DNA of 64,000 nucleotides from Sulfolobales archaeon (GCA_038841535.1 JAWBTQ010000003.1:1-64000); one strand, 5' to 3'. Counted from the first letter of the stretch, positions 2-63,715 are shown. The notes: generated from the letters alone by a model not told the origin. Numbers and translations: made by a program.

Positions 2-313
2 ACTATAAGCTACGAAGCTCTCGAGAGAAGACTGTTGGTTAGCTACGTTAACCCAATGAAGACATCATCAACATGTCCGAAATGTGGAAGCAGGTTAGAG
101 GATAGCGGTGGTAGAGTACTGAGATGCGGTAGATGTGGACTCACAGGAGATAGAGATGTGATCGCATGCATAAACCTGTTCTACAGGTACTCAAGATGTG
201 GGGGTCTAGGGGTGCCCCTGAACGCCCCCAAGCCCGATGAAAACCCGAGCGGAATGCGGGGGAAAAGAGATGAAGCAATGACATCAACTTACATAAACCT
301 ACATCAGAGCTGA
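2..313 (+). CDS. tnpB: TnpB (IS200/IS605/IS607 OrfB) RNA-guided nuclease, 3' part only
   Basis: Frame open from window edge: ...VNPMKTSSTCPKCG..RCGRCG..DRDVIACINL = zinc ribbon plus RuvC-III Asp. Confidence 0.9.
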   Translation, partial: TISYEALERRLLVSYVNPMKTSSTCPKCGSRLEDSGGRVLRCGRCGLTGDRDVIACINLFYRYSRCGGLGVPLNAPKPDENPSGMRGKRDEAMTSTYINLHQS

Positions 314-318
314 ACCCC
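189..318 (+). ncRNA. Putative omega RNA scaffold / element right end overlapping tnpB 3' end
   Basis: Segment ACTCAAGATGTGGGG...GAGCTGAACCCC recurs in the mini-elements at 1.0, 7.4, 14.4 and 23.2 kb; contains GATGA..CCGA K-loop-like motif. Confidence 0.7.
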
Positions 319-480
319 TGAGCAGTTTGCTAGAGAGAAGGTTCCAACCTCTAAATAGTTTCGATATGAGACTTTAGTACAGGCCTAGACAAGTACCTCG
401 CACACTCCCTATCCTTGTACATCCTTTATACCTTCATAGTTAAACTTATATATCTTCGTAGTAAAGCCTTAGGGGTGCGT

Positions 481-825
481 ATGTCTAACCCTGAGGTTAG
501 TGAAGAGGAGAGGATCTGGGGCTTTATAGCGTGGCTAATACCGCTGATCGGTGGGGTGCTTGTCTTAGTCCTAAAGCCTGGGTATAGGTTTGCGAAACAC
601 TGGGCCCACCTCTCTATATCCTTCTTTATAGCGATAGTGCTCTTGGGGGTAGTCTCAGCTGTTATAGGGTTGATACCCTTCATAGGGTGGGTCATCTCTA
701 CACTACTGTGGATTGCTGTAGTAATAGTGTGGATCATGGGCATAGTGAAGTCTCTCGGCAGAGAGCTATGGAAACCCCCCGTAATATACGACCTAGCTAA
801 GGTCCTAGGCATAGAGAGGATCTGA
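481..825 (+). CDS. DUF4870/Tic20-like small membrane protein
   Basis: 3 hydrophobic helices; ATG at 481 behind GGGGTG SD. Confidence 0.7.
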   Translation: MSNPEVSEEERIWGFIAWLIPLIGGVLVLVLKPGYRFAKHWAHLSISFFIAIVLLGVVSAVIGLIPFIGWVISTLLWIAVVIVWIMGIVKSLGRELWKPPVIYDLAKVLGIERI

Positions 826-849
826 ACAGGAATACCGCAAGAAGTTTTT

Positions 850-1650
850 CTCCTCAACAATCTCCAGACTTGTTTATACGTGAAACTATGGCTACTTATT
901 GAAGAGGTTGAACAGGTCTCAGAGTGCCATAGATGTAGCCGACACCAAGGACTTTACCGTACTCGCGTTAGCGAACAGCCTCCCAGTCGACGTGCCTTGA
1001 GCAGCTGTTTCGGGTTTCACATCTCTTCATATTTGTTTATGTGGATGGGGGCGCTTGTAAGTACTCTATGTGTAGTGGTGTGTGGAGATAGTTCGATGAG
1101 GGGTCGAGAGCTCCCTAGGGGCTCTCCCCGAGTTACTCAAGATGTGGGGTGCCCGTGGTCACCCCGAACGCCCCCGAGCCTGATGAGAACCCGAGAAGAA
1201 TGCGGGGGAACAGAGATGAGGCAATGAAACCAACCTATGTGAACTTACATCAGAGCTGAACCCCCGTCTATGTCCCCGGCATCGGAAGACCGCAATCTGT
1301 CTATTGTTAGCGGTAGCGACGAACAACATATAGATGTGCTTCGCCTTCATTATGGCAGCATAGCTGAAGACTTGTCCCAGCACCACTGTCAAGCTATACT
1401 TCCAGAAGCTATGTACGATGGGCCTGCTGGTGGGCGTGATAAGGGGGCCCGGCAGAGGGCCTGCTTGGAGTTCGCCGAGACCAGCTAGAAGAGCATCTCT
1501 GCTAATTAGCCCATATCCTCCAAGCCCTCCTCAACGCTTCTAAAGCCTTGGGGTACAATCTGTCAGCCGTCTTCAGCAGGTTCCCTTACCTGGCCTCCGA
1601 TATCATCTTCAGGTCTAGGCTCTCGAACCACACCAGCTATTATCAGAACT
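850..1650 (-). pseudogene. Decayed gene resembling a restriction-enzyme (HsdR_N-like) N-terminus, interrupted by a mini-element; limits approximate
   Basis: Fragments VLGQVFSYA..FVATANNRQIAVF and HVDWEAVR*REYGKV with stops and frameshifts. Confidence 0.3.
1012..1264 (+). mobile_element. tnpB-derived non-autonomous mini-element (type 1)
   Basis: Follows CTGTTTC; ends GGGTTTCACATCT...AGAGCTGAACCCC (imperfect TIR, 10/13); 3' half homologous to 189-318. Confidence 0.85.
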
Positions 1651-1741
1651 GAAAGAGTTACTGCTCTACATAAAAATGCTTCACGAATGCGAGAGGGGAC
1701 TGTGAAACGGTGAGTTTATAAGTAATCAGATCCCTTGGGAG

Positions 1742-1820
1742 TGGTGCGGCGGCCGGGATTTGAACCCGGGATCTCCGGCGTGGAAGGCCGGCGTCCTAGA
1801 CCAGGCTAGACGACCGCCGC
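1742..1820 (-). tRNA. tRNA-Gly(TCC)
   Basis: Cloverleaf GCGGCGG..CCGGC CTTCCAC GCCGG..GGTTCAAATCC..ACCA. Confidence 0.97.
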
Positions 1821-1928
1821 CAAAATGTTTGGACTCTGAGGCATAAAAACGTTGCTTTAAGTAGTAAGGCTAGTGCTATTGTAGAGCGGGCTCAGTCTAA
1901 GTTAACTGCTAATTTGAGCTCTTGGGCA

Positions 1929-2582
1929 ATGTCTTCTGGTGGTAGCTTGAGTGGCTTAAGTGTTGAGGTCCTTAGAGAGCGTTTAGCTAATCTTGAGGTA
2001 GCCCGAGCCAATCTTATTGATATTGGAAAAGAGGTCACCCATTTGTCAAAGAGAGCTATCTCAAGCACTCTAAAGAAAGACCGAGTTAGTGCTGACGGTA
2101 TTCTGAGTGAACTAAGTAGAGTATTCCGATCGCTATTAGAGAACGTTTCTCCCTATCCAGAGCTTTACTACTCTAACCACTTTTACTCAGTAGCAGCAGA
2201 GTACGTTGAAGCCATTCAGTTTTACTCAATAGTCTTTGATGAGAGGCTTAAGGATCTCGAGGAGATAGGTGTCCATCCGATACCTTACATCATGGGGAGT
2301 ATCGACCTAATAGGAGAGCTGAAGAGAGGGTCACTAGAGCTCCTTAGAAAGGAAGAGTACGCAGAGAGCTTCAGGTATTTCGAGATTGCGGAAGAAATAT
2401 ACGAAGAACTATCGGATATAGACTTCGCTGACACGATAATCCCCGGCTTTAGAAGGAAGCTAGACATATACCGAAAGGTTATCGACGACTGGAGACTTCT
2501 ATTAATCGATATTGAGTCGAGAATTAAACTCGAGAAAGCGTGTAGAGAAGCAGAGAAGCGCTTCGGGTCGTATGCTTTATAA
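1929..2582 (+). CDS. Translin/TRAX (C3PO)-family protein
   Basis: Helical protein with EYVEA and YIMGSIDLIGELKR motifs. Confidence 0.8.
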   Translation: MSSGGSLSGLSVEVLRERLANLEVARANLIDIGKEVTHLSKRAISSTLKKDRVSADGILSELSRVFRSLLENVSPYPELYYSNHFYSVAAEYVEAIQFYSIVFDERLKDLEEIGVHPIPYIMGSIDLIGELKRGSLELLRKEEYAESFRYFEIAEEIYEELSDIDFADTIIPGFRRKLDIYRKVIDDWRLLLIDIESRIKLEKACREAEKRFGSYAL

Positions 2583-2617
2583 TGAAAGGACTTAGTCTAA
2601 AGATGAGGGGGTAGTGA

Positions 2618-3895
2618 GTGTCTGAGTTCGTAATAGAGTACGTGAGAGCTCTGCAGGTGTTAGACTCTAGGGGGGACCCTACTGTTGAAGTAAGTGTAGT
2701 AACAAGGGGTGGAGGCTATGGTAGAGGAATAGCTCCAGCTGGAGCGTCGAGGGGGCTCAGGGAGGCCGTAGAGGCTAGAGACGGTGGTAGTAAGTACTTG
2801 GGTAGAGGTGTTGAAAGAGCTGTAGAAGCTGTAAACAAGTACATAGCACCAGCGATAACAGGGATGAGCTCTTATAAATTCCGCGAGGTAGATAGGAAGA
2901 TCCTAGAGATTGATGGAACACAAAATAAGTCAAGGCTAGGCGGTAACGCTACAACAGCTACCTCTCTAGCCGTAATAAACGCAGCAGCAGATACGGCTGG
3001 AGTACCGCTATTTGAGTTCCTGGGGGGGAGAAGAGCGAGAGTTCTGCCGACCCCACTAATGAATATCATTAACGGTGGAGCGCACGCAGGTAACGAGCTC
3101 TCGTTTCAAGAGTTTATGATCGTGCCTGTAGGAGCCTCAACTTTTTCCGAAGCTATTAGAGTAGTGGTAGAGATATACAAAACCCTTAAGAACTACTTAA
3201 AGAGGACCTACGGACCAGCTGCTATTAACGTAGGTGATGAAGGTGGATTCGCTCCGCCCATGAGGAAAGTGAGGGAGGCGTTAGAGTCTATAGTAAAAGC
3301 TACTTCAGAAGCTGGCTACAGAGCTGGTGAGGACGTGCTTCTCGCCGTCGATGTAGCAGCGTCACAGATCTATAGAGATGGACTATACTCCGTTGACGGT
3401 AACTCTATAGACGGTATTAGGCTATTAGAACTCTACACTAACCTCATCGACGAGTTTCCTATAGCTAGCATAGAAGACCCCTTTGCCGAGGACCACCCCC
3501 AGTACTTCCAAGAACTCAAACTAGGTCTTAAGGGCAGAGCACTAATTATAGGAGACGACTTAACGGTTACCAACGCAAGCCTAATATCTAGGTATCTCTT
3601 TGAGAACGCGGTAGATGGTGCCGTAATCAAGGTCAACCAAGTCGGAACATTTACGGAAGCTGAGGAGGCCATAGAGCTCCTCAAGCAATATAATGGCAAA
3701 GCCATAGTTAGTCACAGGAGCGGTGAAACAGAGGACACTACGATAGCTCATGTAGCGGTAGCCTACGGGACTGGTCTAATAAAGACTGGTGCTCCCGCTA
3801 GAGGTGAGAGAACATCTAAATACAACGAGCTGCTCAGAATAGAGGATTACCTCTCTGGAGAGGCTGTATACGCCGGTAAGAGAGCGCTTAAGTAG
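2618..3895 (+). CDS. eno: Enolase
   Basis: DSRGDPTVE, GDEGGFAP, SHRSGETED, IKTGAPARGER. Confidence 0.98.
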   Translation: MSEFVIEYVRALQVLDSRGDPTVEVSVVTRGGGYGRGIAPAGASRGLREAVEARDGGSKYLGRGVERAVEAVNKYIAPAITGMSSYKFREVDRKILEIDGTQNKSRLGGNATTATSLAVINAAADTAGVPLFEFLGGRRARVLPTPLMNIINGGAHAGNELSFQEFMIVPVGASTFSEAIRVVVEIYKTLKNYLKRTYGPAAINVGDEGGFAPPMRKVREALESIVKATSEAGYRAGEDVLLAVDVAASQIYRDGLYSVDGNSIDGIRLLELYTNLIDEFPIASIEDPFAEDHPQYFQELKLGLKGRALIIGDDLTVTNASLISRYLFENAVDGAVIKVNQVGTFTEAEEAIELLKQYNGKAIVSHRSGETEDTTIAHVAVAYGTGLIKTGAPARGERTSKYNELLRIEDYLSGEAVYAGKRALK

Positions 3896-4072
3896 TAACA
3901 GTCAAATCAGTAAATAGATAAAAAAGTTACTTAAATACATGAATACTCTTTCTATGGATAGAAATAGCTTGACCGATTTAGGAGAAGCCTTAGAGCATTG
4001 AGAGCTACGAGGCCCATTAGGCCGCAGCTTTATAAGTAAGCAGGAGACGAGCACTAAGACCGGGGGTAGTAA

Positions 4073-4330
4073 GTGGGTATCGAAACTGTAGTAGAGACCT
4101 TTAAGAGTATTGTTGGACCGTTCACAAAACTATTTGAGGGTGTTAGTCCAGCTAGTACTGCTGCTGCAGTCGGCCTGATAATCCTGCTTTTCATGGCCGG
4201 ATTTTACGCTATCTATGGACTAGTAAAGCTGGGGAAGCTTGTATGGAACCTTAGGGTAAAGAGCGTTACGGTAGGGTTGACTCTACTAGGAATAACCCTC
4301 ATAGCACTAGCTATATTACTGCCCTACTAG
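4073..4330 (+). CDS. Small 2-TM membrane protein, unknown function
   Basis: TATA (TTTATAAG) and GGGGGT SD upstream; hydrophobic ORF. Confidence 0.7.
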   Translation: MGIETVVETFKSIVGPFTKLFEGVSPASTAAAVGLIILLFMAGFYAIYGLVKLGKLVWNLRVKSVTVGLTLLGITLIALAILLPY

Positions 4331-4453
4331 AAATCTAAAAACTCGTGGTGTCACGATCTTCAGGAGCCTCTAAAGTTAAGCTAGATCTTTAGTGGCAAGT
4401 AGTGAGCTAGGTAGCTATATAGGTTTCCCACTAAAGTAACTTGGGTTGGTATA

Positions 4454-5707
4454 ATGGAAAAAACTACTTACGTCTATGACGAGCTTCATGGGTACATAAA
4501 GCTGACTGGAGTTTTTAGGGACATCGTATCCACCAAGGTCTTTCAGAGGTTAAGAAGGATCAGGCAACTACCTTTCGCTTGGTACGTCTATCCTGGGGCA
4601 ACACACACCAGATTTTCGCATGCTCTCGGGTCTATGCATATAGCAGACACCGTTTCTCAAAGATTGTTCGAGAGTGGTTTCATCACCAAAGACGACGTGT
4701 CCTTAGTTAAAGTAAGTGCCTTACTTCACGATATAGGTCACGCACCTTATTCCCACTCCCTAGAGCCTCTGCTTATGGAGCTATGGAGTGTTGAGCCAGG
4801 CTATCTAGTAGAAACAGTTGTGTCTCAGGATCCCGAACTAAACGAAGTCATGGATAAGCACGGAATTAGCTCTAACGAAGTTGTTTCAGTCTTGAGAGGA
4901 AGGAGTAGCTCTAACATATTAAATGAAATGATCTCTAGCGACGTGGATGTTGATAGACTTGACTACCTACCTCGGGACGCATACCACACTGGAGTAGCTT
5001 ATGGAAAGATAGATCTACACAGGTTAGTACTGTTCTTAACTCCCGGTCCTTCGGGGATCGTTATACCACTTAAAGCACTCAATGCTCTTGAGAGCTTCTA
5101 CGTAGCTCGCTTACACATGTATAAGGCCGTGTACTACCATAAGACCATCACCGGATATCAGATACTACTTAGGAACGTATACTCCGAGCTCTGGAGGTAT
5201 AGGGAGCTTAGGGAGGTACTGGAGTCTTACATGAGTCCGCATGGCATACTAAAAGCCGTTAGAGAAGGTACTTACTATCTATGGGATGATTCACTAGTAT
5301 CTGGGTTACTAAATTATGCTCTCGTTAAAAGAGTGCTCTCGCCGGAAGCCGAAGACCTAGTGTTCAAGTTACTTAGTAGGAAGGGGTATAAGGCAGTCGT
5401 AAACGATGTCAGAATGTGCTGGAGCTATAGAGATGTAGCTACGAAAGCCGATGAGCTTAGAGCGTTTGTAGAGTCTGAGACCTCTCTAGCCCCACCCAAG
5501 GTGGCTCTCTTTGTCGAAGCAGTGCCAGTATATACTATTGAGAAGCCGGCTAGAGTTCTAGTAGATGGGAGGGAGTTTGGTATAGTGGACATAGAGGAAA
5601 GCATAATGCGTTTCCTGCCTCCCCTTACCTGCTTCATCAGGTTATACACGCTACCAGAATACGAAATGGATGTGAAGTCAGCCTTAACTAAGTTCCTTAA
5701 GCATTAA
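4454..5707 (+). CDS. HD-domain phosphohydrolase (dNTP triphosphohydrolase-like)
   Basis: FQRLRRIRQL, HTRFSHALG, LLHDIGH, DVDRLDYL. Confidence 0.92.
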   Translation: MEKTTYVYDELHGYIKLTGVFRDIVSTKVFQRLRRIRQLPFAWYVYPGATHTRFSHALGSMHIADTVSQRLFESGFITKDDVSLVKVSALLHDIGHAPYSHSLEPLLMELWSVEPGYLVETVVSQDPELNEVMDKHGISSNEVVSVLRGRSSSNILNEMISSDVDVDRLDYLPRDAYHTGVAYGKIDLHRLVLFLTPGPSGIVIPLKALNALESFYVARLHMYKAVYYHKTITGYQILLRNVYSELWRYRELREVLESYMSPHGILKAVREGTYYLWDDSLVSGLLNYALVKRVLSPEAEDLVFKLLSRKGYKAVVNDVRMCWSYRDVATKADELRAFVESETSLAPPKVALFVEAVPVYTIEKPARVLVDGREFGIVDIEESIMRFLPPLTCFIRLYTLPEYEMDVKSALTKFLKH

Positions 5708-6130
5708 GTAAGCGTCCTCACCGTTTGGGTAGTAACTAGGTAAGATATCGATTACTTTATAATTCAGCTTTTTATAAAGAGATATAGCTATCTTATTCTT
5801 GACTGAAACCTCGAGAACAACCCTCGAGATCCCGAGAGACTTAACTCTAGCTTCAAATTCTTTAATGAGGGCTTTACCTAAACCTTTACCTCGGTGGGCA
5901 CTACTAACGGCTATGGATACGAGGTGACCCCTCTCATTTCTTTCTATGGTTCCTACAGAATAACCTACAACCCTACTATCGCACTCGACCACGAGAAATA
6001 GCTGTGGAAACAGATTGTAGAACACGAGGAATAGTTGGCAGGGATATGGGTACGAAAATGATTCAAGCTCGATTTCACATACTCTCGCTAGATCCTCTCG
6101 CTTAAATTCTCTTACCAAACATCGAGACAC
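5684..6130 (-). CDS. rimI: RimI/Ard1-family N-acetyltransferase
   Basis: GHLVSIAV..RGKGLG, LEVSVKN, YYPNGEDAYLM. Confidence 0.9.
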   Translation of the reverse strand: MSRCLVREFKREDLARVCEIELESFSYPYPCQLFLVFYNLFPQLFLVVECDSRVVGYSVGTIERNERGHLVSIAVSSAHRGKGLGKALIKEFEARVKSLGISRVVLEVSVKNKIAISLYKKLNYKVIDILPSYYPNGEDAYLMLKELS

Positions 6131-6195
6131 CGTGTTCTACCGCTTAAATAAGTACGGCTTAACCTAAAGCTTAAGAGTTTCTCTAGGATCCCTAA

Positions 6196-7335
6196 TTGGT
6201 GGGGGAGATTAAGTACTGGGAGCTTCTAAGGCCAGACTCCTTGACCGTGTGGAGAAATAGAGTAGTTAAAGAAAAGCTCTCTTGGTACTACAACGTCATG
6301 GTGAACAAGGCTCCAGCTAAATTTGTTTTAGCTAGGTATGTGGGTACGAGAGATGACTTGAGTAAGGCAACCCTCGAGGAGCTTTGGGAGCTTCACGACA
6401 GCTTATCGAAGGATTTCGATAGGCTCCTTCTCCAAGTAAAGAGCTCGAAGATCTCTCTCGCTGAAGTTGCTAAACTCGACAAACCTAAGGTAAGCTATCT
6501 CGATGTAAAAATAGAGATCGCTAAGAGGATTTTGGAAGAATGCCGTTTTTGCGAGTGGAGATGCGGCGCTAACAGATTACAGGGCTTTAGAGGTTTTTGC
6601 CGTCTTGCTAATGAAACTTACGTCTCGTCGTATTTTCTGCACGTTGGAGAGGAGCCTCCTCTTGTCCCAAGTGGGACCATATTCTATGGCTCATGCAACT
6701 TCAGGTGTGTTTTCTGCCAGAACCACGACATCTCTCAGGAACACCCCTTTAGCGGTATTAAAGTTACCGCAGAGGATCTAGCGTCAATTCAAGACTACTT
6801 GAGGCTTGAGGGAGCGAGAAACATAAACCATGTAGGAGGAGAACCCACACCTAATATGTACACTATATTGAGCTCCTTAAAGTACGTGAAGAGTAACGTG
6901 CCTCAGCTATGGAACAGCAACATGTATCTCTCAGAAGAGTCTATGAGGTTACTCCTAGATGTGGTTGATATATGGCTTCCAGACTTTAAGTATGGTAACG
7001 ATTCCTGCGCTGCACGCCTCTCTTTAGTCAAAAACTACTTGAGTGTTGTCGCGAGAAACCTTAAATTTGTTTGCGATAGAGGTGACCCCATAATAATAAG
7101 GCACTTAGTAATGCCTAACCACTTAAATTGCTGCACTCAACCCATCTTAGAGTGGATTTCAAGAAACTGCTCTATAGCGCTCGTTAATGTCATGGGGCAG
7201 TACAGACCAGAGTACCTGGTTCTGAGATACCAAGAAAAGTATCCAGACATAGCGCGCAGATTAACTACGGACGAATTGCGTAGAGCGTACGATATAGCAA
7301 AGAATCTAGAATTAGATTTTGAAGATGTGAGCTGA
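6196..7335 (+). CDS. Radical SAM protein (PflX-like)
   Basis: CNFRCVFCQN, GGEPTP, DFKYGND. Confidence 0.9.
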   Translation: MVGEIKYWELLRPDSLTVWRNRVVKEKLSWYYNVMVNKAPAKFVLARYVGTRDDLSKATLEELWELHDSLSKDFDRLLLQVKSSKISLAEVAKLDKPKVSYLDVKIEIAKRILEECRFCEWRCGANRLQGFRGFCRLANETYVSSYFLHVGEEPPLVPSGTIFYGSCNFRCVFCQNHDISQEHPFSGIKVTAEDLASIQDYLRLEGARNINHVGGEPTPNMYTILSSLKYVKSNVPQLWNSNMYLSEESMRLLLDVVDIWLPDFKYGNDSCAARLSLVKNYLSVVARNLKFVCDRGDPIIIRHLVMPNHLNCCTQPILEWISRNCSIALVNVMGQYRPEYLVLRYQEKYPDIARRLTTDELRRAYDIAKNLELDFEDVS

Positions 7336-7387
7336 GCGTCCACGCATTAGTCGTGATAACAGCTCTAAAGTCCTGTAGAGTTGTTTC

Positions 7388-7672
7388 TGGTTTTGTATTG
7401 GTTTGTAGTGATTGATGCTACTCTCGGTAATGCGTTAGAGACACCTATAAACGTCTCAACAAAGAATAAAGCCTCTCGATGGGAGTGCGGGAGCTCGCGG
7501 GGGAGCTTAAAGTCGGCTCACCAGAGGGAGGCCACTGAAGTCAGTTACACAAGATGTAAAGTACCGTAGCCGCCCTGAATGCCCCAAGCCCTGTGAAATC
7601 CCGAGCGAAGTGCGGGGAAAGAGGTGGGGCAATAACATCACTCAGTATAAGCCAATACCAGAGCTGAACCCC
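7388..7672 (+). mobile_element. Degenerate type-1 mini-element
   Basis: Follows TTGTTTC; ends CCAGAGCTGAACCCC; diverged omega-like block 7548-7672. Confidence 0.7.
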
Positions 7673-7979
7673 GTAGCTTATCGGTGATGCATGTGAGTGT
7701 TCCCGTAGAGCTACTCAAGGTCTTAGGAAACAGGTTCGTGGCCGCAAAGAGGACGATAATCAGGGAGTACGTGAGGTACAAGATGTACCTCCAGGAGCAG
7801 TACAACGAGATATGGGGAGATAAAGAGGCAGGGGAAGCGGTGGACCTATTCATAATAGTGAGAGGATAGTCGTTTCCGGTAGACGCAAGATGATGGTCGT
7901 AAACAGTAAGTCAGTGTGATTTCCAAGTCTCACAGTGTCCCAGAACTTAGATGAAACTTCGATTAAGGGCTTTGGGAGT

Positions 7980-8024
7980 CTTCCACGCCGGAGATCCCGG
8001 GTTCAAACCCCGGTTGCCGCGCCA
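7980..8024 (+). repeat. 3' half of tRNA-Gly(TCC), att-like remnant
   Basis: 41/45 identical to the 3' part of the tRNA at 1742-1820, starting at the anticodon loop; inverted orientation. Confidence 0.8.
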
Positions 8025-8526
8025 GCTCTTAGCAAGTTAGCAATTTTAAACCAATTGTTTCGCAGACTTTTCTTACACTCATATAATGTATCTGCGTGAA
8101 GCAGTACCTCTATTGAGCCGCCGAGCTCGATAATCGCTTTTACCTCCCCCTACCCTAAAGTGCTGGTTTTGTTTACGAAAGTTGTGAGTAGACGATCTAC
8201 AGACTCAGGAAGACCTTTCCCATTCTCTCACTGTGCTTATAGGCTAACTCCCGCAAAAGGCTGTCTTGCTAAGAGGGGCGATCTAGATACATCAAGTACA
8301 AGCTTGGACAAAATGTTGGTAGTACACGAAGCATTACCCACGAAGTAAATGTGTGCCTCACGTCTTAAGGCTCAAGAGGCGTCAAAGCCCTAGGGAGAGT
8401 AGTTTATAGCAACAGCAGACTGTGGGAGAAAGCAATAGATTAGGAAAACTTACAACAACCAGGTGGAGCTGGAGACTCCGCTAGTAATTAAGTTACCTAA
8501 GCTATAATACTCTAGGGTATAGTATA

Positions 8527-8991
8527 GTGCTAAATACAGCAACTAGCACATACGATAGAAAATTACGTAAGTTTACTTCTCTTATCTCAAGAGTAGCTAG
8601 AGAATACGTAGAAGTACTGGAGGCAGTGCTCGTGGCTATACTGATATTACTCACTTTGATCGCCTTTGGAATACTCGTTAGAGACATAACATCTCTGAAG
8701 CTAGACTCTCCTCTCTCTGAGCTGCAAGTAGTTGTTTCCGATATTCTGGTTCTAGTCATATTAATAGAGCTGACACGAAGTTTCATTATATCTAGTCTTG
8801 GAGGTGAGAGGTACCTAGAGGGGTTCATTGAGATGGGGGTAATCATTTTAGTCAGAGAGGTCGCTGTAGCCGCGATGACTGCAAACGTACCTAATGCCTT
8901 GATGGCTAGTCTAGGGGTAACTCTGCTAATCGTGGCTCTCTGGGTAGCAAGAGAAAAAATCACGACTCCGCGACGAGAGAGGCAAGGTTAG
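8527..8991 (+). CDS. PsiE-family membrane protein
   Basis: 4 TM helices, LVILIEL..EMGVIILVREV pattern. Confidence 0.7.
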   Translation: MLNTATSTYDRKLRKFTSLISRVAREYVEVLEAVLVAILILLTLIAFGILVRDITSLKLDSPLSELQVVVSDILVLVILIELTRSFIISSLGGERYLEGFIEMGVIILVREVAVAAMTANVPNALMASLGVTLLIVALWVAREKITTPRRERQG

Positions 8992-9009
8992 ACAAGAAAA
9001 CCGGAAGTT

Positions 9010-9264
9010 TCGTTGAGCTCTCACACGACTATTCGTGAACCTCAGAAACTGTTTCACAACAAACGGCTATTCATAATCCCTCATCCTCGTTGATATCCGA
9101 CCTCCCAGCTGCATCTCAGTATTATCTCCGAAGCCCCCCATCGCGGTAGCTCAAACCTTGTCACTAGAGCTTTAAAGCCCTATGGCTCTCGGAATCCCGA
9201 AGACACTAGCACGTATACAAACATGCAAACTCGAAGGCCTACAAATACTGTGAGGGTCGGAACC
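9010..9264 (-). mobile_element. Highly degenerate mini-element (type-1-like)
   Basis: Minus strand TGTTTC|GGTTCCGACCCTCAC..., omega-like GATGGGGGGC and GAGGATGAGG, end GAGAGCTCAAC. Confidence 0.4.
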
Positions 9265-9361
9265 GAAACACCTAGAGAGTTGTAGACCGTGAGCAATTAG
9301 AGCATACAAACAAACCCGGAGATTTTTAAGAAGAAAACAACCCAGGGTCTCGAGCTGTTTC

Positions 9362-9614
9362 GTTGATAAGATTTACTAAGGTTTCTGTGGGAGTTTCGTG
9401 CTGGTGGAGAGGTTAACATCGTTGTGTGACTCTGTGTGGTGAGGGCATTTCTTCGAGCCGTCCAAAAAGTGAGATCTTAGGCCTAGGCGTGAACTCCGTG
9501 TGATTGGGCTCGAAGAGTGTCCATGACCCCCGCGCTTCACCGTGACTACCAGCCAAACCGCGCTGAGTCAAGGCATAACCCGCCCTAGAGAAACCAGCAG
9601 AGACCTAAGACAGG
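9362..9614 (+). mobile_element. Degenerate type-2 mini-element
   Basis: Follows CTGTTTC; CTAAGGTTTCTGTGG and GAAACCAGCAGAGACCTAAGACAGG resemble the ends of 63545-63715. Confidence 0.45.
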
Positions 9615-9820
9615 TAGTGGTTAACGGTAATTACTGATGCAGTAACCTGCGAACTCTCTGATCACGCGTAGCAACTAAAGCACTAAGAACAGTAGATAAA
9701 TCAACGCACCTTGCTGAGCAGCAATGTTTATTACTGTGACCTATTAGGTTCGTTGAAGCCTGAGCCGACGTCTTAATGGCTGCTATCAGTACTGAAGCTA
9801 TATAGTGTAACATCGTATTA

Positions 9821-11188
9821 GTGGTGGGGATGAAGGAACCGTATAGAGTTGGTTGGAAGGATATTGCCGCTCTAATTGAGGCAGTATTAAAAGCAGAGTC
9901 TGTTAAGCCCGTTCAACAAGCTAGGAGAGACGCCTTTAAGGCTTTAGGGATACTAGGGACCAGGAGGGACCCCCCGTTAACTGCTATATTCTATGGAATC
10001 ATGCTTAGACTTGGGATAGTCGATAAAGTAGTGGAGGACCTAACCGGCTCTAGAAGTCCTCTTCTTTTAGATCCGAGACTTAGAGCTGCTCTAAGAGTCT
10101 TCATCTACCTAGAGCTATTCGCTAAAGATAGAATAATCTACAGTAGGAAGCTAGAGTGCTTAAAGAGAACGGCGTCGTGGCTTTCCTCTCGAGCCCACCC
10201 GTACGTAGGGATGTGGTTCGTAGACGCTGTTAAAAGCTTATCCACGTATACGCTTACCCCCAAAACACCTAGCGAGGAGCTCATGTTTAAGTACTTACTT
10301 CCAGCCTGGTACGTAAGAAAAGTCTTTGAGTTGATAGGTGAGAGCGAAGGTGATAAGTTACTGAAGTCATTCATGGAGAAGCCTAAGATATCCATTCGAG
10401 TAAACATTCTCAAGTCCAGTGTCGAAGAAGTACTCATGAGTTTAAAAACCAAGGGAAAACCTGAGATCTCAAAGGCAGTACCCACGGTGCTAAAATTCGA
10501 CGGTCCATACAACTTCGATAAGTCGGAGCTCTTTAGGAGCGGTAAAATAGTAATACAGGAAGAGCCAGCAGCACTAGCAACCTTAATTCTCAACCCGAGA
10601 CCTAGCGACGTAGTCGTAGACCTAGCAGCAGCACCAGGTGGTAAAACAGAGCATATGGGTGAGCTAATGAGAAACCGGGGTGTAATACACGCCTTCGACA
10701 TCGATGAAGCTAGAATGAAGAAACTAGAGGATTTAGTCAGAAGAGCTGGGATAACTATAGTTAAGACCTATATTAAAGACGGTCGCGAAGCACCTAGAGT
10801 ACTTGGAGAGGAGATCGCGGATAGAGTCTTAGTTGACGCACCATGTACTTCTGATGGAACTCTAGCTAAAAACCCAGACCTCAGGTGGAGGTTGATGGAG
10901 GATGAAGTAGCTAAGCTTAGCCAGCTTCAGTACGAGCTCTTGAAAGCTGCACTAAAGCTAGTCAAGCCAGGTGGATACATCCTCTACACAACGTGCACTC
11001 TACTTAGAGAAGAGAACGAAGAAGTAGTCAAGAGATTTCTAGAGAAAGAGGGTAAAAAAGTGAGATTACTTTCACTCGAGGGTCCTTACGATAAGGGTTT
11101 CTTACCCGGTACTATGAGGGTTTGGCCCCACATCCATAAAACGATAGGCTTCTTTTACGCACTATTACAAAAGGTAGATAGAAGCTAG
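9821..11188 (+). CDS. RsmB/NOL1/NOP2/Sun RNA m5C methyltransferase
   Basis: DLAAAPGGKT, DAPCTSDG, YTTCTL..ENE. Confidence 0.95.
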   Translation: MVGMKEPYRVGWKDIAALIEAVLKAESVKPVQQARRDAFKALGILGTRRDPPLTAIFYGIMLRLGIVDKVVEDLTGSRSPLLLDPRLRAALRVFIYLELFAKDRIIYSRKLECLKRTASWLSSRAHPYVGMWFVDAVKSLSTYTLTPKTPSEELMFKYLLPAWYVRKVFELIGESEGDKLLKSFMEKPKISIRVNILKSSVEEVLMSLKTKGKPEISKAVPTVLKFDGPYNFDKSELFRSGKIVIQEEPAALATLILNPRPSDVVVDLAAAPGGKTEHMGELMRNRGVIHAFDIDEARMKKLEDLVRRAGITIVKTYIKDGREAPRVLGEEIADRVLVDAPCTSDGTLAKNPDLRWRLMEDEVAKLSQLQYELLKAALKLVKPGGYILYTTCTLLREENEEVVKRFLEKEGKKVRLLSLEGPYDKGFLPGTMRVWPHIHKTIGFFYALLQKVDRS

Positions 11189-11212
11189 ACACTGAGCAGA
11201 ATAACCTATAAG

Positions 11213-11416
11213 CTAGCTACTAGGTGCGGCTTTTCTAGGCACCGATGAGGGAGGTACTACGGCCGGTACCGGCAGACCCGACTCTTTTCTCTTCCTAACC
11301 CAGTATTCTCTCCTGTTCCTCTGCCTTGGAGGTAGGTTCCTTCTAGGTTTTGCGGGTATTTTTGGTGTTGCGTTTCTCACCTTACCAGCTTTCGTCATGG
11401 ACCCGTGTGTAGGCGT
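11213..11416 (-). CDS. rps30e: 30S ribosomal protein eS30 (probable ACG start)
   Basis: (M)[18 protein letters not shown]; conserved N-terminus begins at ACG 7 nt after GGTGA. Confidence 0.9.
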
Positions 11417-11478
11417 TTTGCTTTCACCTGGTTCTATCTATACCAACAAGCTTATAAAGCTAACAAACTTCTCATTGG

Positions 11479-11676
11479 CTATAGGTTAGCCCGCTTTGCG
11501 CTTTCGACACCTTCGGGCTTGTGCTCTCCCCTAGCAATTACTCTGTACTTAACATACTTGTCAATAGGTGAGAACCTGGGTGGACTGGCAACTACCGTCG
11601 TACTTCCGCATTTAGGACACTGTTCTTTCAGAGTGTAGTTTCCGCACTTGATGCACTTTCTTATAAGAAACCTAAC
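11479..11676 (-). CDS. nop10: H/ACA RNP protein Nop10 (no canonical start; GTT inferred); absent from the ORF track
   Basis: RFLIRKCIKCGNYTLKEQCPKCG..PPRFSPIDKYVKYR, immediately downstream of aIF2alpha as in the conserved operon. Confidence 0.92.
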   Translation of the reverse strand, partial: VRFLIRKCIKCGNYTLKEQCPKCGSTTVVASPPRFSPIDKYVKYRVIARGEHKPEGVESAKRANL

Positions 11677-12469
11677 TGAGCTTCACCCTCTCGAAGCTGA
11701 AGCTTACGTTAAACTTTTTACTCAAGTTCTCAGCTCTCTTTACGAGCTCTGCTAGCTTACTCTCGAGAACCTTGTAATCTGTTCCTACTAGCTCGATTCT
11801 GTATCTTGGGGCACCCTCAGAGTACACTCTAACTCTAACATCGTCTCCAACATCTTCATCTAGCAACTTTAGTAACTCCTTAATTCTGTAGATGCCGTCC
11901 GACTCGTAGGTAGTTAAAACGAGTCTACAATCGATCCTGACGTGCTTGGGTTTAATATGCTTAGGTATTTCCTCCATTAACCCCGAGACCCATTCGTCCG
12001 GGACTCCAGCACTCCTAAGAACGCTGTCTCCCATAACTGAGGCGTCTTCAAACGCGGATAGAACGTCTCCGTAGAACTCCTCTAGCTTCCACCAAACTCT
12101 GGAGTATGCCTCTTCGAGACTCTTGCCGAGCTTCTTAGCGACTATCTCTAAGATCTTCTCGGCTCTGTTAACGCGCTTCCACTCTCTCAGCTTCCTCCTA
12201 CGCTCTACCTCAGCCACTCTCTTTAAAGATACGTCTACTTGGTTCTTCTTTCTATCTACTCTTATGACTTTTACTACAACCTTCTGGCCCTCCCTAATAA
12301 CCTCACGTATGTTCTTAACCCACTTACTGCTAACTTCGTTCCATGGGAGGTAGGCCTCGAGGTTACCGTATTCGTCTAGCTTAACGTACGCTCCTAAGTC
12401 AAATACTTTGTCTACTGTTGCTACGCAGAGCTCGTTGATAGATGGTAGAATCTCCTTTCTTTTAACCAA
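11672..12469 (-). CDS. eif2a: Translation initiation factor aIF2 alpha
   Basis: N-terminal S1 domain GAYVKLDEY..VDVSLKRV; GAPRYRI; synteny. Confidence 0.96.
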   Translation of the reverse strand: MVKRKEILPSINELCVATVDKVFDLGAYVKLDEYGNLEAYLPWNEVSSKWVKNIREVIREGQKVVVKVIRVDRKKNQVDVSLKRVAEVERRRKLREWKRVNRAEKILEIVAKKLGKSLEEAYSRVWWKLEEFYGDVLSAFEDASVMGDSVLRSAGVPDEWVSGLMEEIPKHIKPKHVRIDCRLVLTTYESDGIYRIKELLKLLDEDVGDDVRVRVYSEGAPRYRIELVGTDYKVLESKLAELVKRAENLSKKFNVSFSFERVKLS

Positions 12470-12475
12470 AGCCTT

Positions 12476-12673
12476 CTACCCCAGAACTCTTACAACCTCA
12501 CCAAGGACTTTAGCTTTACCACCTGTAGGTACTGCCAGCAGGGAACTACAAACAAAGCACTTAACTGGAAAGGTAGCATGATCAAAAACTATCTGCTCAT
12601 TACCGCAAGATGGACACTTAATCCTTAAGAACCTACTCTTCGGTATTGGGATCAGGATCTTTCTCTTCTTCAT
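12476..12673 (-). CDS. rps27e: 30S ribosomal protein eS27
   Basis: [26 protein letters not shown]. Confidence 0.97.
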
Positions 12674-12957
12674 CTAACCACCTCGACTAGGTCTACTTTC
12701 TTAAGCCTTATACCTCTTCTGTGCTGCATATAGCCGCACTTATTGCATTTCAACTTCAACACTATCTTCTTCGTTACCTTAGCGAACCTCTTTTGCTCCG
12801 GCTTACGCTTGCTTCCATAGCCTTCCTGCTTGCGCCTATATCTACGCTCACCCTCAGCTAGAGACCTCCTTCTGCCGTGTTTATATATCGACACACTGTG
12901 CTCTGTATGTGTCCCGCATTTCCGGCAGTACGTCCTAATTACCTTAGGTACTCTCAA
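12670..12957 (-). CDS. rpl44e: 50S ribosomal protein eL42 (L44e)
   Basis: [30 protein letters not shown]. Confidence 0.97.
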
Positions 12958-13503: not shown

Positions 13504-14439
13504 CTATAATGTAGCTCTACTCTGACTAGGGAGCAATAACCACTCTATCTTTGATTCGTCGAGGTTTACTATAGAATTACCTGAGGTATTCGTAGCAATA
13601 GCTCCCTCTATACTCAGTAGTGTCCCCACCGGTAGCTCTACAAACCTCAGTCGGTGTGTGAGCAAGTGTAAGTCCTTATTGACTAGAGTTGAAGCTCTAA
13701 CTACATCAGCTCTTAGAATCGCCGGAGTTCTATAGTCGCTCTCAGTTATTTTAACAACTAGTTCAGCTCTTCTAAAGTCTACGTAAGGACCAAGAAACCC
13801 CCTTACTCTACTACAATCTACTATCCTTATGGTTACCTTTCTTCTCTTATATACACCCTGAAGATATCTTTTCGTGATCAGCTCGGCGTGTTTCTTTAAT
13901 TCGAGAGACTCGGATACTTCCATTGCCTCGCGGATTGCCTCATTGAAGTCTAAGTGTTTAAGCACTCCTAGGGAATACAAAGAGGATATCCTACTATAAG
14001 CGTCTGGACTATTTAAGCAATGTATATCTACGTCTGACTCAGCACTACTGTAACCACCTAAGTGTGACCCAGCTATTCCACAACTTAACCCCAGCAAGTC
14101 GAATGTTTGGATAATCTGTCGCAGGAAAGCGTTACCGCAACTCCGACCATCAATTGACCACCTGCGTACCTCAAGCACATCTCCTACTGGGACTATGGGG
14201 ACATCTCTACCTATCTCTGGAAGATTCCTAATGTAGTGAAGGTAATACCTTTTAATCATCTCCTCCACCTCCATAAGTCGTTTGAGCTTTTTACCATCTA
14301 CAACTCTAGGTATAGCGACGAAACCCTCATGAGGATGTACGCAACCTTTTACTACCCACACACTTCCGTCTCTGTGTCTCACTATATCGCCTTCAGTTAG
14401 TTGCTTTATGTAACTGTTTCGGTTTTCATATCTGCTCAT
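13504..14439 (-). CDS. Predicted nucleotidyltransferase (archaeal uncharacterised family); start now inside a mini-element
   Basis: EGD..VKGCVHP; GIAGS..SDVDI Pol-beta-like motif. Confidence 0.75.
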   Translation of the reverse strand: MSRYENRNSYIKQLTEGDIVRHRDGSVWVVKGCVHPHEGFVAIPRVVDGKKLKRLMEVEEMIKRYYLHYIRNLPEIGRDVPIVPVGDVLEVRRWSIDGRSCGNAFLRQIIQTFDLLGLSCGIAGSHLGGYSSAESDVDIHCLNSPDAYSRISSLYSLGVLKHLDFNEAIREAMEVSESLELKKHAELITKRYLQGVYKRRKVTIRIVDCSRVRGFLGPYVDFRRAELVVKITESDYRTPAILRADVVRASTLVNKDLHLLTHRLRFVELPVGTLLSIEGAIATNTSGNSIVNLDESKIEWLLLPSQSRATL

Positions 14440-14683
14440 GTCTGTCGATATTGATCGAAACATTTATAAGCACCTCATGGTGATATGCGTGGATGTACAT
14501 AGATGAGGGGTCGAGAGCCACTCGATGATCTAGATGACGGCTCTCCCCGAGATACTCAAGATGTGGGGTGCTAGGGGTCGCCCCGAACGCCCCCGAGCCC
14601 GATGAGGCCCCGAGCGGAATGCGGGAGAAAGAGGGTGAGGCAATGAAGTCAACCGATATAAACCTATACAAGAGCTTAACCCC
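14421..14683 (+). mobile_element. Type-1 tnpB-derived mini-element
   Basis: Follows CTGTTTC; GGTTTTCATATCT...AGAGCTTAACCCC; omega block close to 189-318. Confidence 0.85.
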
Positions 14684-14724
14684 CTACCATGGCTTCATAA
14701 CCTAAATGGCGGTGTCATGGGTGT

Positions 14725-14778: not shown

Positions 14779-14832
14779 AAAGCTATCGTGTTTAAAGGTT
14801 AAAAATTGGTGCTACCAGGAGGCTGTTAAGTA

Positions 14833-17586: not shown

Positions 17587-17590
17587 GACC

Positions 17591-23123: not shown

Positions 23124-23179
23124 GAAAGGTTCGCGGTTTCACATCCACAGTAAGTGAAGAAGCCTAACGCAACTGTTTC

Positions 23180-23456
23180 GGGTTTCACATCTTTCCATAT
23201 TTGTTTATGTGGATGGGGACGCTTGTAAGTACTCTATGTGTAGTGGTATGTGGAAGTAGTTCGATGAGGGGTCGAGAGCCGTTGCGACGCCCTAGATGAC
23301 GGCTCTCACTGAGTTACTCAAGATTTGGGACGCCCGGGAATGCCCCGAACGCCCTTAAGGGTGACGCAGACCCAAGACCGATGCGGGGAAGCGGAGATGA
23401 GGCAATGAAGTCAAACAATACAAACCAACTTCAAGATCTTGAGCGGGGTTCAGCTC
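23180..23456 (+). mobile_element. Type-1 mini-element with inverted right terminus
   Basis: Follows CTGTTTC; first ~100 nt near-identical to the 1012 copy; terminus present as GGGGTTCAGCTC. Confidence 0.8.
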
Positions 23457-48661: not shown

Positions 48662-48857
48662 CTTTTCTAGCCCGAATATGACACCTAGAGCTAAAACTGG
48701 GTAGCGTTACGAGAAAATATCGTGATGAACTAAGGTTAGCATACTTAACTACTCAACCTAGAAAGCTCTTAACTCCTCCCTAAAGTAGCGTCTAGGGCTA
48801 CCGTCTCTCAGCCCCACATAGAGTTGTGGTTTTAATACTTTACGTAGTGAGTATTAC

Positions 48858-50522: not shown

Positions 50523-50781
50523 CAGTTTTGACCCTTACTTCTAGAGCCCAAGATGCTGAGGTAAGCTAGAATACGGCAACAAAACACCTCACCGCCTAAG
50601 ATGAAGGTCTGTAGGACATAGTGACAGGTATAAACTCCTCTTAAAGAGTACAGGATGTGGGGTCTCAGGGTACCTTAGAACACCTACGAGGACGACGTCG
50701 ACCCAAGTTCGATGTAAGAGGAGGGATGAGGCGATAACCGATAACGTTAAGTAATATAAGTCATCATGAGAGTGGACTCCC
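50523..50781 (+). mobile_element. Degenerate mini-element / omega-RNA-like remnant
   Basis: Follows CGTTTC; GATGTGGGGTCTCAGGG..GACCCAAG..GATGAGGC aligns with the 23.3-kb copy. Confidence 0.55.
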
Positions 50782-56773: not shown

Positions 56774-56822
56774 GCACTTCCCCAACGAATAGAGGGTCGA
56801 GCATTATAAGTAGAACAAGCAG

Positions 56823-56912
56823 TGGGCCCGCGGGGATTTGAACCCCGGACCACCCGGTCTCCCATCACGCTTAATATGAGCCGGGCGCTCTGCCTGGCTG
56901 AGCTACGGGCCC
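56823..56912 (-). tRNA. tRNA-Ile2(CAT) with canonical 16-nt intron (56859-56874)
   Basis: GGGCCCG acceptor is Ile-type; CTCATA|intron|A; CCA not encoded. Confidence 0.85.
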
Positions 56913-61750: not shown

Positions 61751-61896
61751 AAACCTTGAGGAGCGGATAGCGGTGAGCAACTCTCCATAGGCTCTCTACT
61801 ACTAGCACCTAGGCACAGAGTTTCTGAACTCAAATTCAGGTCGTAGTGGCTGTTTATGCTTATTTTCCTATTTTTCACTCTTCACTCGGTGTGACG

Positions 61897-62268
61897 GTGC
61901 AGAGGCTACCACCTGAAGTAGAGAAAACGCTAGCAAAGTACCAAGAAGTTGAGGCACAACTAGCTTCGGTTATGACCCAAAAGGGTACGGTGATATCCTA
62001 TATAAAGGAGATAGAGAGGGCTTTAGGGATACTCAAGGACTTACCTAGCGACGCAGTTGTTTATAGAAGTACGGGTCACGTACTCGTTAAGGTAAGTAAA
62101 GACGATGCTGTAAAGGATTTAGAGGGAAAGAAGGAAGAGCTAGAGATAAGACTAACTAGCCTCGAGAGAATGGAGAGTATCTTGAAGAAACAGCTTGAAG
62201 AGTTGAGGAGCGCTCTCAGTAAGTACATGAAGACGGCAACAGAGCCTCGTAAAGAGGAGGAAGAATGA
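61897..62268 (+). CDS. pfdB: Prefoldin beta subunit
   Basis: RLPPE..VYRSTGHVLVK coiled coil. Confidence 0.93.
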   Translation: MQRLPPEVEKTLAKYQEVEAQLASVMTQKGTVISYIKEIERALGILKDLPSDAVVYRSTGHVLVKVSKDDAVKDLEGKKEELEIRLTSLERMESILKKQLEELRSALSKYMKTATEPRKEEEE

Positions 62269-62378
62269 CCGATAGAGCGATAGCGGGAGCGTATAGATTA
62301 ATGTCTATCTCTAGATTCTGCTTGCCATCTACTAAAACCCCTAAGTTGTCTGTGTGCCCTAAATGAGTGTAGAAACTG

Positions 62379-63221
62379 GTGTGTTTTTCTGTGTGGAAGG
62401 GCTTTAGTAACACAAAATATTTTCACCTAGTAGTACTACTAAGTGCTCTCGGTGGTTTCTTTAAGATCGTTAGTGGGGTGTTCTTTGGATCAAAAGCCGC
62501 TTTAGTTGACGCACTAACGAGTATAGTAAACGTTGTTGCTGCGTTTTTAGTCGCTAGGTATGAAGACCTGAGTTTACGACCTCCTGACACGGACCACCAT
62601 TACGGGCATAAGAGAATGTCTGTGGGCGGTAGCATGTTTTCCATCAGTCTCTACTCTATGGTTGGAGGAGCTATGCTAGTAGACATTGTTCATAGCGGTA
62701 CCGGAAGGTACGAAGTCCACATACTCGCAACTTTGTTCGCGACTTTGGGAGCGTTACCGTACTTGACAGCTATACTCATTTCCAAGAAAATGGGGGGGTC
62801 TTATGGAACGTACGCTAAATTCACTGTAGTTGAGGTTATCGAGTGCGTAGTAGTCATAACTTCATCACTTGGAGGTGCTTTAGTTAACTACCTAGTAGAT
62901 CTTACTGGAGCCGCCATCCTCCTCCTTTATCTATACATCGAGATCGTTAGAGAAGTGCGGGGATTACTGCACGTAATAAGCGATAAGGCACCTGTCTTCC
63001 TAACTGAGAGGATTAGAAAGATATCGGAAGACCTCAATGTGGAGATCAGGAGTATAAGAATCAGGGAGGTGGTCCCAGGAAAGTACCATGGAGATATGGT
63101 TATAGCTTTACCGGCAGAGACAACGATAAAGAAAGCCCATGAAGTCGCTCATACAATAGAACAGTCCCTTAAGGCCCTTGGAATAGACGTAGACTTAATA
63201 GTCCACGTCGAACCCGCTTGA
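62379..63221 (+). CDS. Cation diffusion facilitator transporter
   Basis: SKAALVDA, PPDTDHHYGH, AHEVA, HVEP. Confidence 0.92.
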   Translation: MCFSVWKGFSNTKYFHLVVLLSALGGFFKIVSGVFFGSKAALVDALTSIVNVVAAFLVARYEDLSLRPPDTDHHYGHKRMSVGGSMFSISLYSMVGGAMLVDIVHSGTGRYEVHILATLFATLGALPYLTAILISKKMGGSYGTYAKFTVVEVIECVVVITSSLGGALVNYLVDLTGAAILLLYLYIEIVREVRGLLHVISDKAPVFLTERIRKISEDLNVEIRSIRIREVVPGKYHGDMVIALPAETTIKKAHEVAHTIEQSLKALGIDVDLIVHVEPA

Positions 63222-63345
63222 CGTAGCTGTATTCGGTTCTGCCGTTTCCAGTATTCTAGTCGCTCTGTGACTAAGTCCGCAGTTACGATGACAGCTAGGT
63301 TAGGTACCGTTACGCTTAAAACTTCTCGAAGTTTAGAGTTTTGGA

Positions 63346-63471
63346 GGGCCCGTAGCTCAGCCAGGCAGAGCGGCGGACCAAGGGCCGAGGCTCCAGTCCG
63401 GGTCTTAGGACCGTATGGGATGACTTGGAGAGACCCGTAGGTCGGGGGTTCAAGTCCCCCCGGGCCCACCA
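63346..63471 (+). tRNA. tRNA-Trp(CCA) with two introns (63377-63389 at 30/31; 63397-63432 at 37/38)
   Basis: Removing both gives GCGGG CTCCAGA CCCGT. Confidence 0.92.
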
Positions 63472-63544
63472 CACGAGTGAGACCGGGGCTCCTAAAACAA
63501 CATTACCAATGCTATAACCTGCGGAAAGAATTCGGAGCTGTTTC

Positions 63545-63715
63545 CCCGTTCTAGGTTTCTGTAGGTTTCTCCGGATCACCTTATAATGATTATAGGTATC
63601 TTATGCTTGTAAATAGTCGGTGGCTCCGGGTTTCCGAGACCCGCTACTAACCGTGGGGAAGAAACTCAGAGAAGCCGTAGTGAACCACTCAGGAAAACTA
63701 AAAACCTAGAACGGG
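63545..63715 (+). mobile_element. Type-2 mini-element with perfect 14-bp TIR
   Basis: CTGTTTC|CCCGTTCTAGGTTT...AAACCTAGAACGGG; no target duplication. Confidence 0.75.

Follow-up and report, generated by a model that had tools for sequence, protein, structure and literature searches.

According to a 2026 review (PMC13565253), transposons of the IS607 family integrate at GG and most of them end in GG. For IS607 itself the target is given as TGGG, with a right end (RE) finishing in CGG (4-mer TCGG), a GG crossover core and a transposon-adjacent motif (TAM) of the nuclease TnpB that equals the target (10.1101/2023.11.20.567912). Gene-less derivatives have been described for IS200/IS605, where PATE-like elements encode omega RNAs that are served in trans (Meers et al., 10.1101/2023.03.14.532601), while in Staphylothermus marinus 14 copies of a ~260-nt miniature inverted-repeat transposable element (MITE) are related to the upstream region of IS607 elements with one open reading frame (ORF), in a paper written before the omega RNA was known, whose MITE account names neither target nor TAM (Anderson et al. 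2009, PMC2678158). Here we describe mini-elements of ~270 nt in a 64,000-nt stretch of DNA from a Sulfolobales archaeon (GCA_038841535.1 JAWBTQ010000003.1:1-64000; hereafter the window, which is contig C3:1-64000 of the genome that we call G000). These are, quite probably, non-autonomous elements of an archaeal IS607 lineage: deletion derivatives that insert at 5'-WGCC, depend on a serine transposase TnpA in trans and carry an omega RNA for TnpB.

The genome holding the window comprises 1.56 Mb in 40 contigs and is 84% complete, and the nearest relatives of its TnpB are found in hot-spring metagenome-assembled genomes titled Ignisphaera sp., Desulfurococcaceae or Thermoproteota. A family profile of 282 nt, made from 54 copies (24 from G000 and 30 from its congener G002, completeness 87%), matched the genome 67 times, with 34 near full-length matches and six within the window, and the repeat family proposed in an earlier reading of the window from its sequence alone (the sequence-only reading) is real. 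With window positions 1012-1264 as query, blastn against the same genome returned 52 high-scoring segment pairs, and the 134-nt block at the 3' end of the element was found at 51 distinct right-end loci, nearly all with the terminal ...GAGCTGAACCCC; 51 right-end blocks and 67 profile matches together exclude chance as the source of the family. Copies inside the genome diverge by up to 30% from each other. The family is abundant in G002 (40 matches scored) and occurs in G007, G003, G004, G013 and G016 too, with two right-end blocks in the last, and no copy was found in G005 or G001. One mini-element recurs at two contig ends of G000 (C1:46-314 and C10:43824-44030), and since its right flank is identical in both, the two are probably one locus split in assembly; copy counts would therefore be a little too high, and the repeat is a place where contigs tend to break.

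By alignment, the mini-elements derive through internal deletions from a ~1.5-kb parent whose only gene is tnpB. The sole complete full-length element in the assembly (G000:C19:2772-1270, minus strand, ~1.5 kb) is such a tnpB-only element, consisting of a left end, a ~230-nt leader with a TATA-like box, a tnpB of 401-423 aa and a right end, and at least one tnpB ORF of the genome is intact. Its TnpB matches PF07282 and scores 89 bits with NF040570 (TnpB family), below the 100-bit cut-off, and its IDVN, LEDL and GDRD motifs are placed where we take the D-E-D residues of RuvC to lie. Related loci of other genomes (n=51) likewise have tnpB as their sole gene: in 13 of these 51 full-length relatives a left end was located, ~200-265 nt ahead of tnpB, leaving no space for a tnpA, and similarity to a serine transposase occurs nearby at only two of the 51, both atypical.

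The mini-elements join ~50 nt of left end, ~100 nt with the promoter and first ~20 codons, and the last ~133 nt. In full-length relatives the tnpB start is flanked by matches to profile positions 1-50 and ~45-152. The 133-nt block takes in the last ~45 codons of tnpB, with its 3' limit at the RE. In four copies of a shorter form (~190 nt), nothing but the left end and this block remains; from profile position ~150 onward the block is kept in the 282-nt form, in the ~190-nt form and in the gene-less copies of G003 and G004. The left end carries AAC-TGTTTC-G and 10-nt phased repeats. A TATA-like box (consensus GAAACGTTTATAAAC), a hairpin and ~10-nt periodic repeats near the right end were all seen in the 54-row alignment, as was the shared ~130-nt 3' block, in agreement with the sequence-only reading, whose description of the copies as protein-free derivatives keeping the 3' block of tnpB is upheld by blastn, profile and alignment alike. 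The 5' hairpin (GAGAGCC...GGCTCTC; alignment columns 188-219, window 1105-1127) covaries and its loop varies in length; in full-length elements it falls within the first ~20 tnpB codons, and it could belong to the RNA, serve as a signal for processing or mark a site of the left end. The same reading had also quoted imperfect terminal inverted repeats: the repeat is there, matching at 10 of 13 positions, but it is not terminal, since its left arm begins 16 nt in from the element boundary and is subterminal. With inverted repeats of this kind and no target duplication, the elements depart from the classical MITE, and the term 'MITE-like' fits them in a loose sense only. As far as the published description goes, the MITEs of S. 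marinus are similar in length, multicopy, provided with inverted repeats and derived from IS607 elements with the second ORF only; judged from the names of relatives, they and the present family come from the same archaeal order, whereas the copy number is higher here (34 near full-length versus 14).

The sequence-only reading had noted TGTTTC or CGTTTC in front of each copy and taken TGTTTC as the insertion target and TAM, and had named empty sites without TGTTTC as the outcome that refutes this; such empty sites are what we found. As letters TGTTTC is present, in 21-24 of 24 copies at each position, but the true boundary lies 15-18 nt further out. When 24 copies were aligned on GGGTTTC, conservation was found to continue 18 nt further left, as (A)GCCT[TA][AG]nG[CT]AAC-TGTTTC, with information content jumping from ~0.1 to ~1.75 bits at -18 and an abrupt stop at -20, and because the variable positions of the left 18 nt track subfamilies, this stretch is inherited with the element, TGTTTC standing 10-15 nt inside. 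The logo of 86 distinct left junctions (A in 62 or T in 18, G in 76, C in 79, C in 77, then T in 77) gives WGCC, not TGTTTC, as the target. At 102 right junctions the RE ends in CCCC (C in 99, 95, 93 and 84), and the base that follows is only mildly biased (T in 56 of the 102). CC stands at both left and right junctions and, apart from it, no target duplication was seen, a point on which the earlier reading was correct.

Empty sites in related genomes place the boundary at the same position. The copy at 14403-14683 of the window is absent at the orthologous site in G002 (between G002:C5:2270 and 2306) and in G007 (between G007:C1:57595 and 57637), where we read ...GTTAGTTG-TCC-CGTCATGG. In the other direction, when 30 insertions of G002 were compared with G000, five had flanks that are adjacent in G000, with GCC, GCT or GACC alone between them, and one had a filled orthologue. 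In the best empty/filled pair the flanks are 94-96% identical, the empty site reading ...ctaactaa-GCC-taagctgact and its filled partner ...ctaactaa-GCC-TCGTGAAACTGTTTA...GCTGAACCCC-taagctgact. One empty site lies in the window itself, at 48809..48814 on the minus strand, where G002 has a mini-element (locus L072): the flanks map to C3:49413-48814 and 48809-48209 and only GGCT separates them. A copy in G003 lies within an IS605-type tnpB, and excising all but GGC restores the open frame. Polymorphic sites that support the boundary come to seven in all. For insertions of G007, G003 and G004 compared with G000, flanks are 72-86% identical and alignments stop short of the junctions; one orthologous filled site was found (L174 versus C8). 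The empty sites hold (A/T)GCC without TGTTTC, and TGTTTC is therefore part of the element; together with the leftward conservation and the junction logos they rule it out as target or TAM. At the level of genome comparison, these sites show insertion at 5'-(A/T)GCC-3' without target duplication, WGCC being kept once in the empty site, and from the same junctions WGCC is predicted to be the TAM of TnpB.

Set beside IS607, in the published parts describing the Clostridium botulinum IStron (Zedaveinyte et al., 10.1101/2023.11.20.567912), this arrangement is closely similar: the ends are not defined by terminal inverted repeats, no target is duplicated, the empty site has a single copy of a short target, one dinucleotide is shared by the left junction and the right terminus, and the omega RNA (here predicted) ends at the right end and takes the flank as guide. 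The RE 4-mer also differs from the target at -3 and -4 in both systems, CCCC versus WGCC here and TCGG versus TGGG there. Unlike IS607, with its GG core and G-rich target, the present family has a CC core and a WGCC target and so falls outside the GG rule; unlike the IStron as described, the window mini-elements have no tnpA, mostly no tnpB and no intron. No IS607 lineage that combines a CC core with a WGCC target was found in those parts of the IS607 literature that were covered, no search aimed at CC-ended IS607 or at ISfinder having been made. Gene-less IS607-derived mini-elements are a known kind; it is the CC core and the predicted WGCC TAM that are unusual.

Structure prediction with RNAalifold on 54 mini-elements gave three local helices. 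Their 23 pairs are paired in 94.4% of cells, compared with 32-54% with slid partners, and double changes occur in 40 cells, whereas shuffles gave 13.9 +/- 3.6 and none of the 500 reached 40, figures that are to be read with the copies being related and the structure having been taken from the same alignment. G-U pairs are numerous and tolerated on one strand only, and their number fits an RNA of the tnpB sense strand. In ten copies one stem has GGT:ACC instead of CCG:CGG; either version occurs among tnpB-coding copies, although the encoded amino acids change as a result. Covarying stems are as expected of an omega-RNA scaffold, and they support, by alignment, the role that the sequence-only reading had assigned to the block. 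Searches of Rfam returned nothing at gathering score but rRNA and tRNA, with two chance-level matches for the 14403 copy at E<=10.

Insertion on the 3' side of a 4-nt target without duplication is also the pattern of Y1 (IS200/IS605) transposases, and the structure of the junctions alone does not choose between a serine and a Y1 enzyme. Because a Y1 junction would look similar, the transposase genes themselves were searched for, in genomes 80-87% complete. An intact IS607-type transposase was found in G000 at C18:2245-2649, with HTH_17 and Resolvase domains and 212 bits with NF033518 (cut-off 110). Its element (~1975-3960 of C18, outside the window) encodes a serine TnpA (open frame up to 225 aa) and a different TnpB (open frame up to 424 aa); the left end reads AGGG-TGTGCAAC-TGTTTC-G, the right end ...GAGCGGGAAACGG and the right junction ...GGGAAACGG, so that the end architecture is the same with a GG core, and the left-end motif AACTGTTTCG is common to this element and the CC-core family. 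As judged from these ends, a GG-core lineage coexists in G000 with the CC-core family.

Four autonomous elements with CC-type ends encode an IS607-type tnpA together with tnpB: L179 and L181 in G003, L142 in G031 and L150 in G013. Their left ends consist of (T/C/A)GCC followed by T..GAAAC-TGYTT..GGTTTTCAT (for example, TGCC followed by TCCATGAAAC-TGCTTC-GGTTTTCATAT...), and the right end is ...GAAACCC[AG]AACCCC in three of the four, that of L150 lying outside the locus. The four tnpA products are 44-46% identical to the C18 TnpA, and, as in IS607, the related tnpA combines a helix-turn-helix (MerR-like) with a resolvase domain. The suggestion of an IS607-like mover in the sequence-only reading agrees with the serine tnpA genes between the same ends and with the lack of any Y1 match in G000 and G002. 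The mobilising enzyme is, on the gene content of these genomes, most likely an IS607-type serine recombinase rather than Y1.

Three candidates nearer to the family were rejected. A pseudo-resolvase beside a mini-element (C6:10978-11250) is a decayed IS607 of the GG type that the mini-element has invaded, and not the transposase of the mini-element. Locus L131 (positions 300-1260) is a decayed chimera, in which an N-terminal fragment of a C18-like serine tnpA is joined to CC-type tnpB fragments and a ...GAGCTTAACCCC right end; its left end is of the AGGG type, and it was not used as evidence. The Y1 gene next to a copy in G003:C18 is part of another element, an IS605 with its tnpB interrupted by the mini-element. 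At that locus (L158, G003:C18:1-2663) the mini-element occupies 1022-1310 in reverse orientation, one TnpB transposon being broken by the derivative of another.

One alternative is that the mini-elements are PATE-like elements of IS200/IS605 type, moved as single strands by a Y1 (HUH) TnpA with WGCC as the left and CCCC as the right cleavage motif, and we regard it as improbable. Insertion 3' of a 4-nt motif, without duplication and with a scarless empty site, is the IS605 pattern too, and 6 of 20 genomes of the family have Y1 genes, as does G003. However, no match to Y1 (PF01797) was obtained in G000 and G002, the most loaded genomes, nor in G007, G004 or G013, all of them carriers of the family, whereas G005 has three Y1 genes and no family copy, and the lone Y1 gene that adjoins a copy is the one of the interrupted IS605. 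An inverted-repeat scan detected no hairpin within ~20 nt of either mini-element end, the 994-1264 copy having internal hairpins at 1106-1126 and 1146-1165 only, and the same end sequences flank serine-transposase genes in the four elements. PATE-like elements, in the account of them given by Meers et al. (10.1101/2023.03.14.532601), likewise lack genes and keep left end, RE and omega RNA (here predicted) with TnpB and TnpA acting in trans; they are Y1-mobilised, with subterminal palindromes and AT-rich TAMs, whereas the present elements are free of subterminal hairpins, and their end sequences recur in elements with a serine recombinase.

Besides the ambiguity of the junctions and the relatedness of the copies behind the covariation, a number of results weigh against a serine-mobilised IS607 lineage with a functioning life cycle. 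The assemblies of G000 (84% complete) and G002 (87%) contain no transposase flanked by CC-type ends, and the only serine transposases of these two genomes belong to GG-ended IS607 elements and are about 45% identical to the CC-type ones. In G016, right-end blocks occur together with three Y1 matches but without a resolvase match, and G007 and G004 carry copies, yet neither type of transposase was found in them. No empty site could be resolved for 24 of the 30 insertions of G002. Contigs of four hot-spring metagenomes, compared with window positions 600-15600, yielded no circle junction, excision product or empty allele; these contigs stop at the repeats (1032/1235, 7406/7429 and 14438/14636), and the joints listed link different family copies or tRNA-like stretches, none of them skipping one element precisely. 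Either a CC-type tnpA lies in the missing 13-16% of G000 and G002, or the GG-type enzyme may cross-mobilise the copies via AACTGYTTCG, or the copies are stranded.

The last of these leads to a further alternative, that the copies are inert fossils with decayed ends, immobile and untranscribed, and conserved through recent common descent only. The missing cognate CC-type transposase in G000 and G002, the divergence of up to 30% among G000 copies, the four metagenome contig sets without empty alleles and several degenerate copies (7370, 50651 and, with a rearranged end, 23162) would all suit this account. We nevertheless consider it unlikely: insertions are polymorphic between the congeners in both directions, the stems keep their pairing via double changes with G-U tolerated on one strand only, the same ~133-nt block is kept in several deletion forms, and at least one tnpB ORF is intact.

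When the right flanks were taken as candidate guides (n=53), none had an exact second match in G000. Matches with up to two mismatches numbered 92, compared with ~44 expected on a uniform-base estimate, which is of the order of chance, and among those matches listed one follows WGCC; the flanks are ordinary intergenic DNA, different at every site. Guides without matches beyond chance fit self-serving homing rather than domestication, and we give very little weight to the idea that these are domesticated guide-RNA genes whose TnpB-like protein targets host or viral DNA instead of its own empty sites, even though each copy has a promoter-like box of its own and a conserved scaffold and domesticated TnpB relatives acting as RNA-guided regulators are on record in the published summary of that work (10.1101/2023.11.30.569447).

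For non-autonomous IS607-lineage elements of the kind preferred here, the life cycle may be pictured as follows. A serine-recombinase TnpA acting in trans would excise and insert the mini-elements with crossover in CC, as IS607 does in GG. The promoter of each copy would drive transcription through the right end into the flank, by ~16-20 nt as expected of a TnpB omega RNA, and the resulting omega RNA would have that right flank as its guide. TnpB from the few full-length copies, with the predicted TAM WGCC, could then cut the vacated site (WGCC plus flank) after excision, and repair with an intact copy as template would bring the element back.

In the window the family is first met at the contig start, which cuts a tnpB gene of which the 3' part remains (1..316, plus strand, stop at 314-316), encoding the zinc-ribbon (TNB) domain and the C-terminus; its ORF covers 2..313 with the 5' end open, and PF07282 matches at 5-178. 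The predicted omega-RNA scaffold and RE of this full-length element occupy 185..318 on the plus strand (profile 150-282, E 4e-39), with the terminal ...GAGCTGAACCCC at 318 and 83% identity to the mini-element block, and the flank from 319 would be the guide of this tnpB-linked scaffold.

Most copies seen by the sequence-only reading were recovered by the profile search, all on the plus strand. The copy that it placed at 1012 is a mini-element at 994..1264 (profile 1-282, E 4e-81), with its body at 997-1264, TGTTTC internal at 1006-1011, the hairpin at 1106-1126 and scaffold plus RE at ~1131-1264. At its left junction, the target and predicted TAM is TGCC (WGCC), 993..996 on the plus strand, as indicated by the logo of 86 junctions and the empty sites of other copies; the CC of this TGCC is the same dinucleotide as the CC that ends the RE. 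The '7388' copy proved to be a diverged mini-element at 7370..7672 (profile 5-282, E 1e-31; match 7374-7672), of a subfamily with a ~30-nt longer insert ahead of the scaffold, and the '14421' copy a mini-element at 14403..14683 (profile 2-282, E 3e-89; match 14404-14683) with a B recognition element/TATA-like box at ~14456-14472. The '23180' copy, at 23162..23456 (profile 1-270 at 23162-23433), is preceded by AGCC at 23161-23164. Its last ~12 nt are inverted, with GGGGTTCAGCTC at 23445-23456 in place of GAGCTGAACCCC and a minus-strand match of profile 267-281 at 23460-23446, which may reflect a local inversion or an aberrant right-end recombination. No empty site was resolved for this copy or for that at 994-1264, G002 and G007 conserving one flank only. 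For the '50523' copy only the right part stood, a degenerate scaffold/RE block at 50651..50780 on the plus strand (profile 157-281, E 2e-10), the left part being unrecognisable. The proposed minus-strand copy at 9264 was not recovered by profile search of the window at E<=50 with filters off; by eye, TGTTTCGG and GAGCTCAAC stand ~255 nt apart there, a resemblance only.

Several of these sites lie close to tRNA genes, as judged from positions only: tRNA-Gly at 1742-1820 is ~480 nt from the 994-1264 copy, tRNA-Ala at 23787-23863 ~330 nt from the 23162-23456 copy and tRNA-Thr at 48585-48661 ~150 nt from the empty site at 48809-48814, and the 14403-14683 copy is likewise listed among copies near tRNA genes. 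WGCC by itself is too common to account for site choice. Three further tRNA genes (13174-13263, 56822-56912 and 63346-63468) measure 87-123 nt and presumably bear introns; that at 13174-13263 was not assigned by ARAGORN, and Rfam calls all three tRNA.

The reading may be carried further, although we do so tentatively and with somewhat less conviction than doubt: the family would represent a distinct IS607 lineage with a CC core and a TnpB of C-rich 5'-WGCC TAM, coexisting with a GG-core lineage that targets AGGG, and the gene-less guide-RNA parasites, which outnumber tnpB genes by more than 10:1, would borrow both TnpA and TnpB. If so, the family would be a counter-example to the strict GG integration of IS607, and a single hyperthermophile would supply two natural, mutually orthogonal combinations of transposase, nuclease and omega RNA. 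The corrected TAM has a direct consequence, as a TnpB tested with TGTTTC would probably show nothing while the junctions predict WGCC; they point to a thermophilic TnpB/omega-RNA pair with a TAM that is neither G-rich nor AT-rich, of some interest for tool development. For the biology of the family, a large population of gene-less elements with predicted omega RNAs would be tied to the serine-recombinase (IS607) branch, such elements having so far been discussed, in the accounts cited here, for the Y1 branch, and the presence of GG-core and CC-core IS607 in one genome would offer a natural case for joint change of the target of TnpA and the TAM choice of TnpB.

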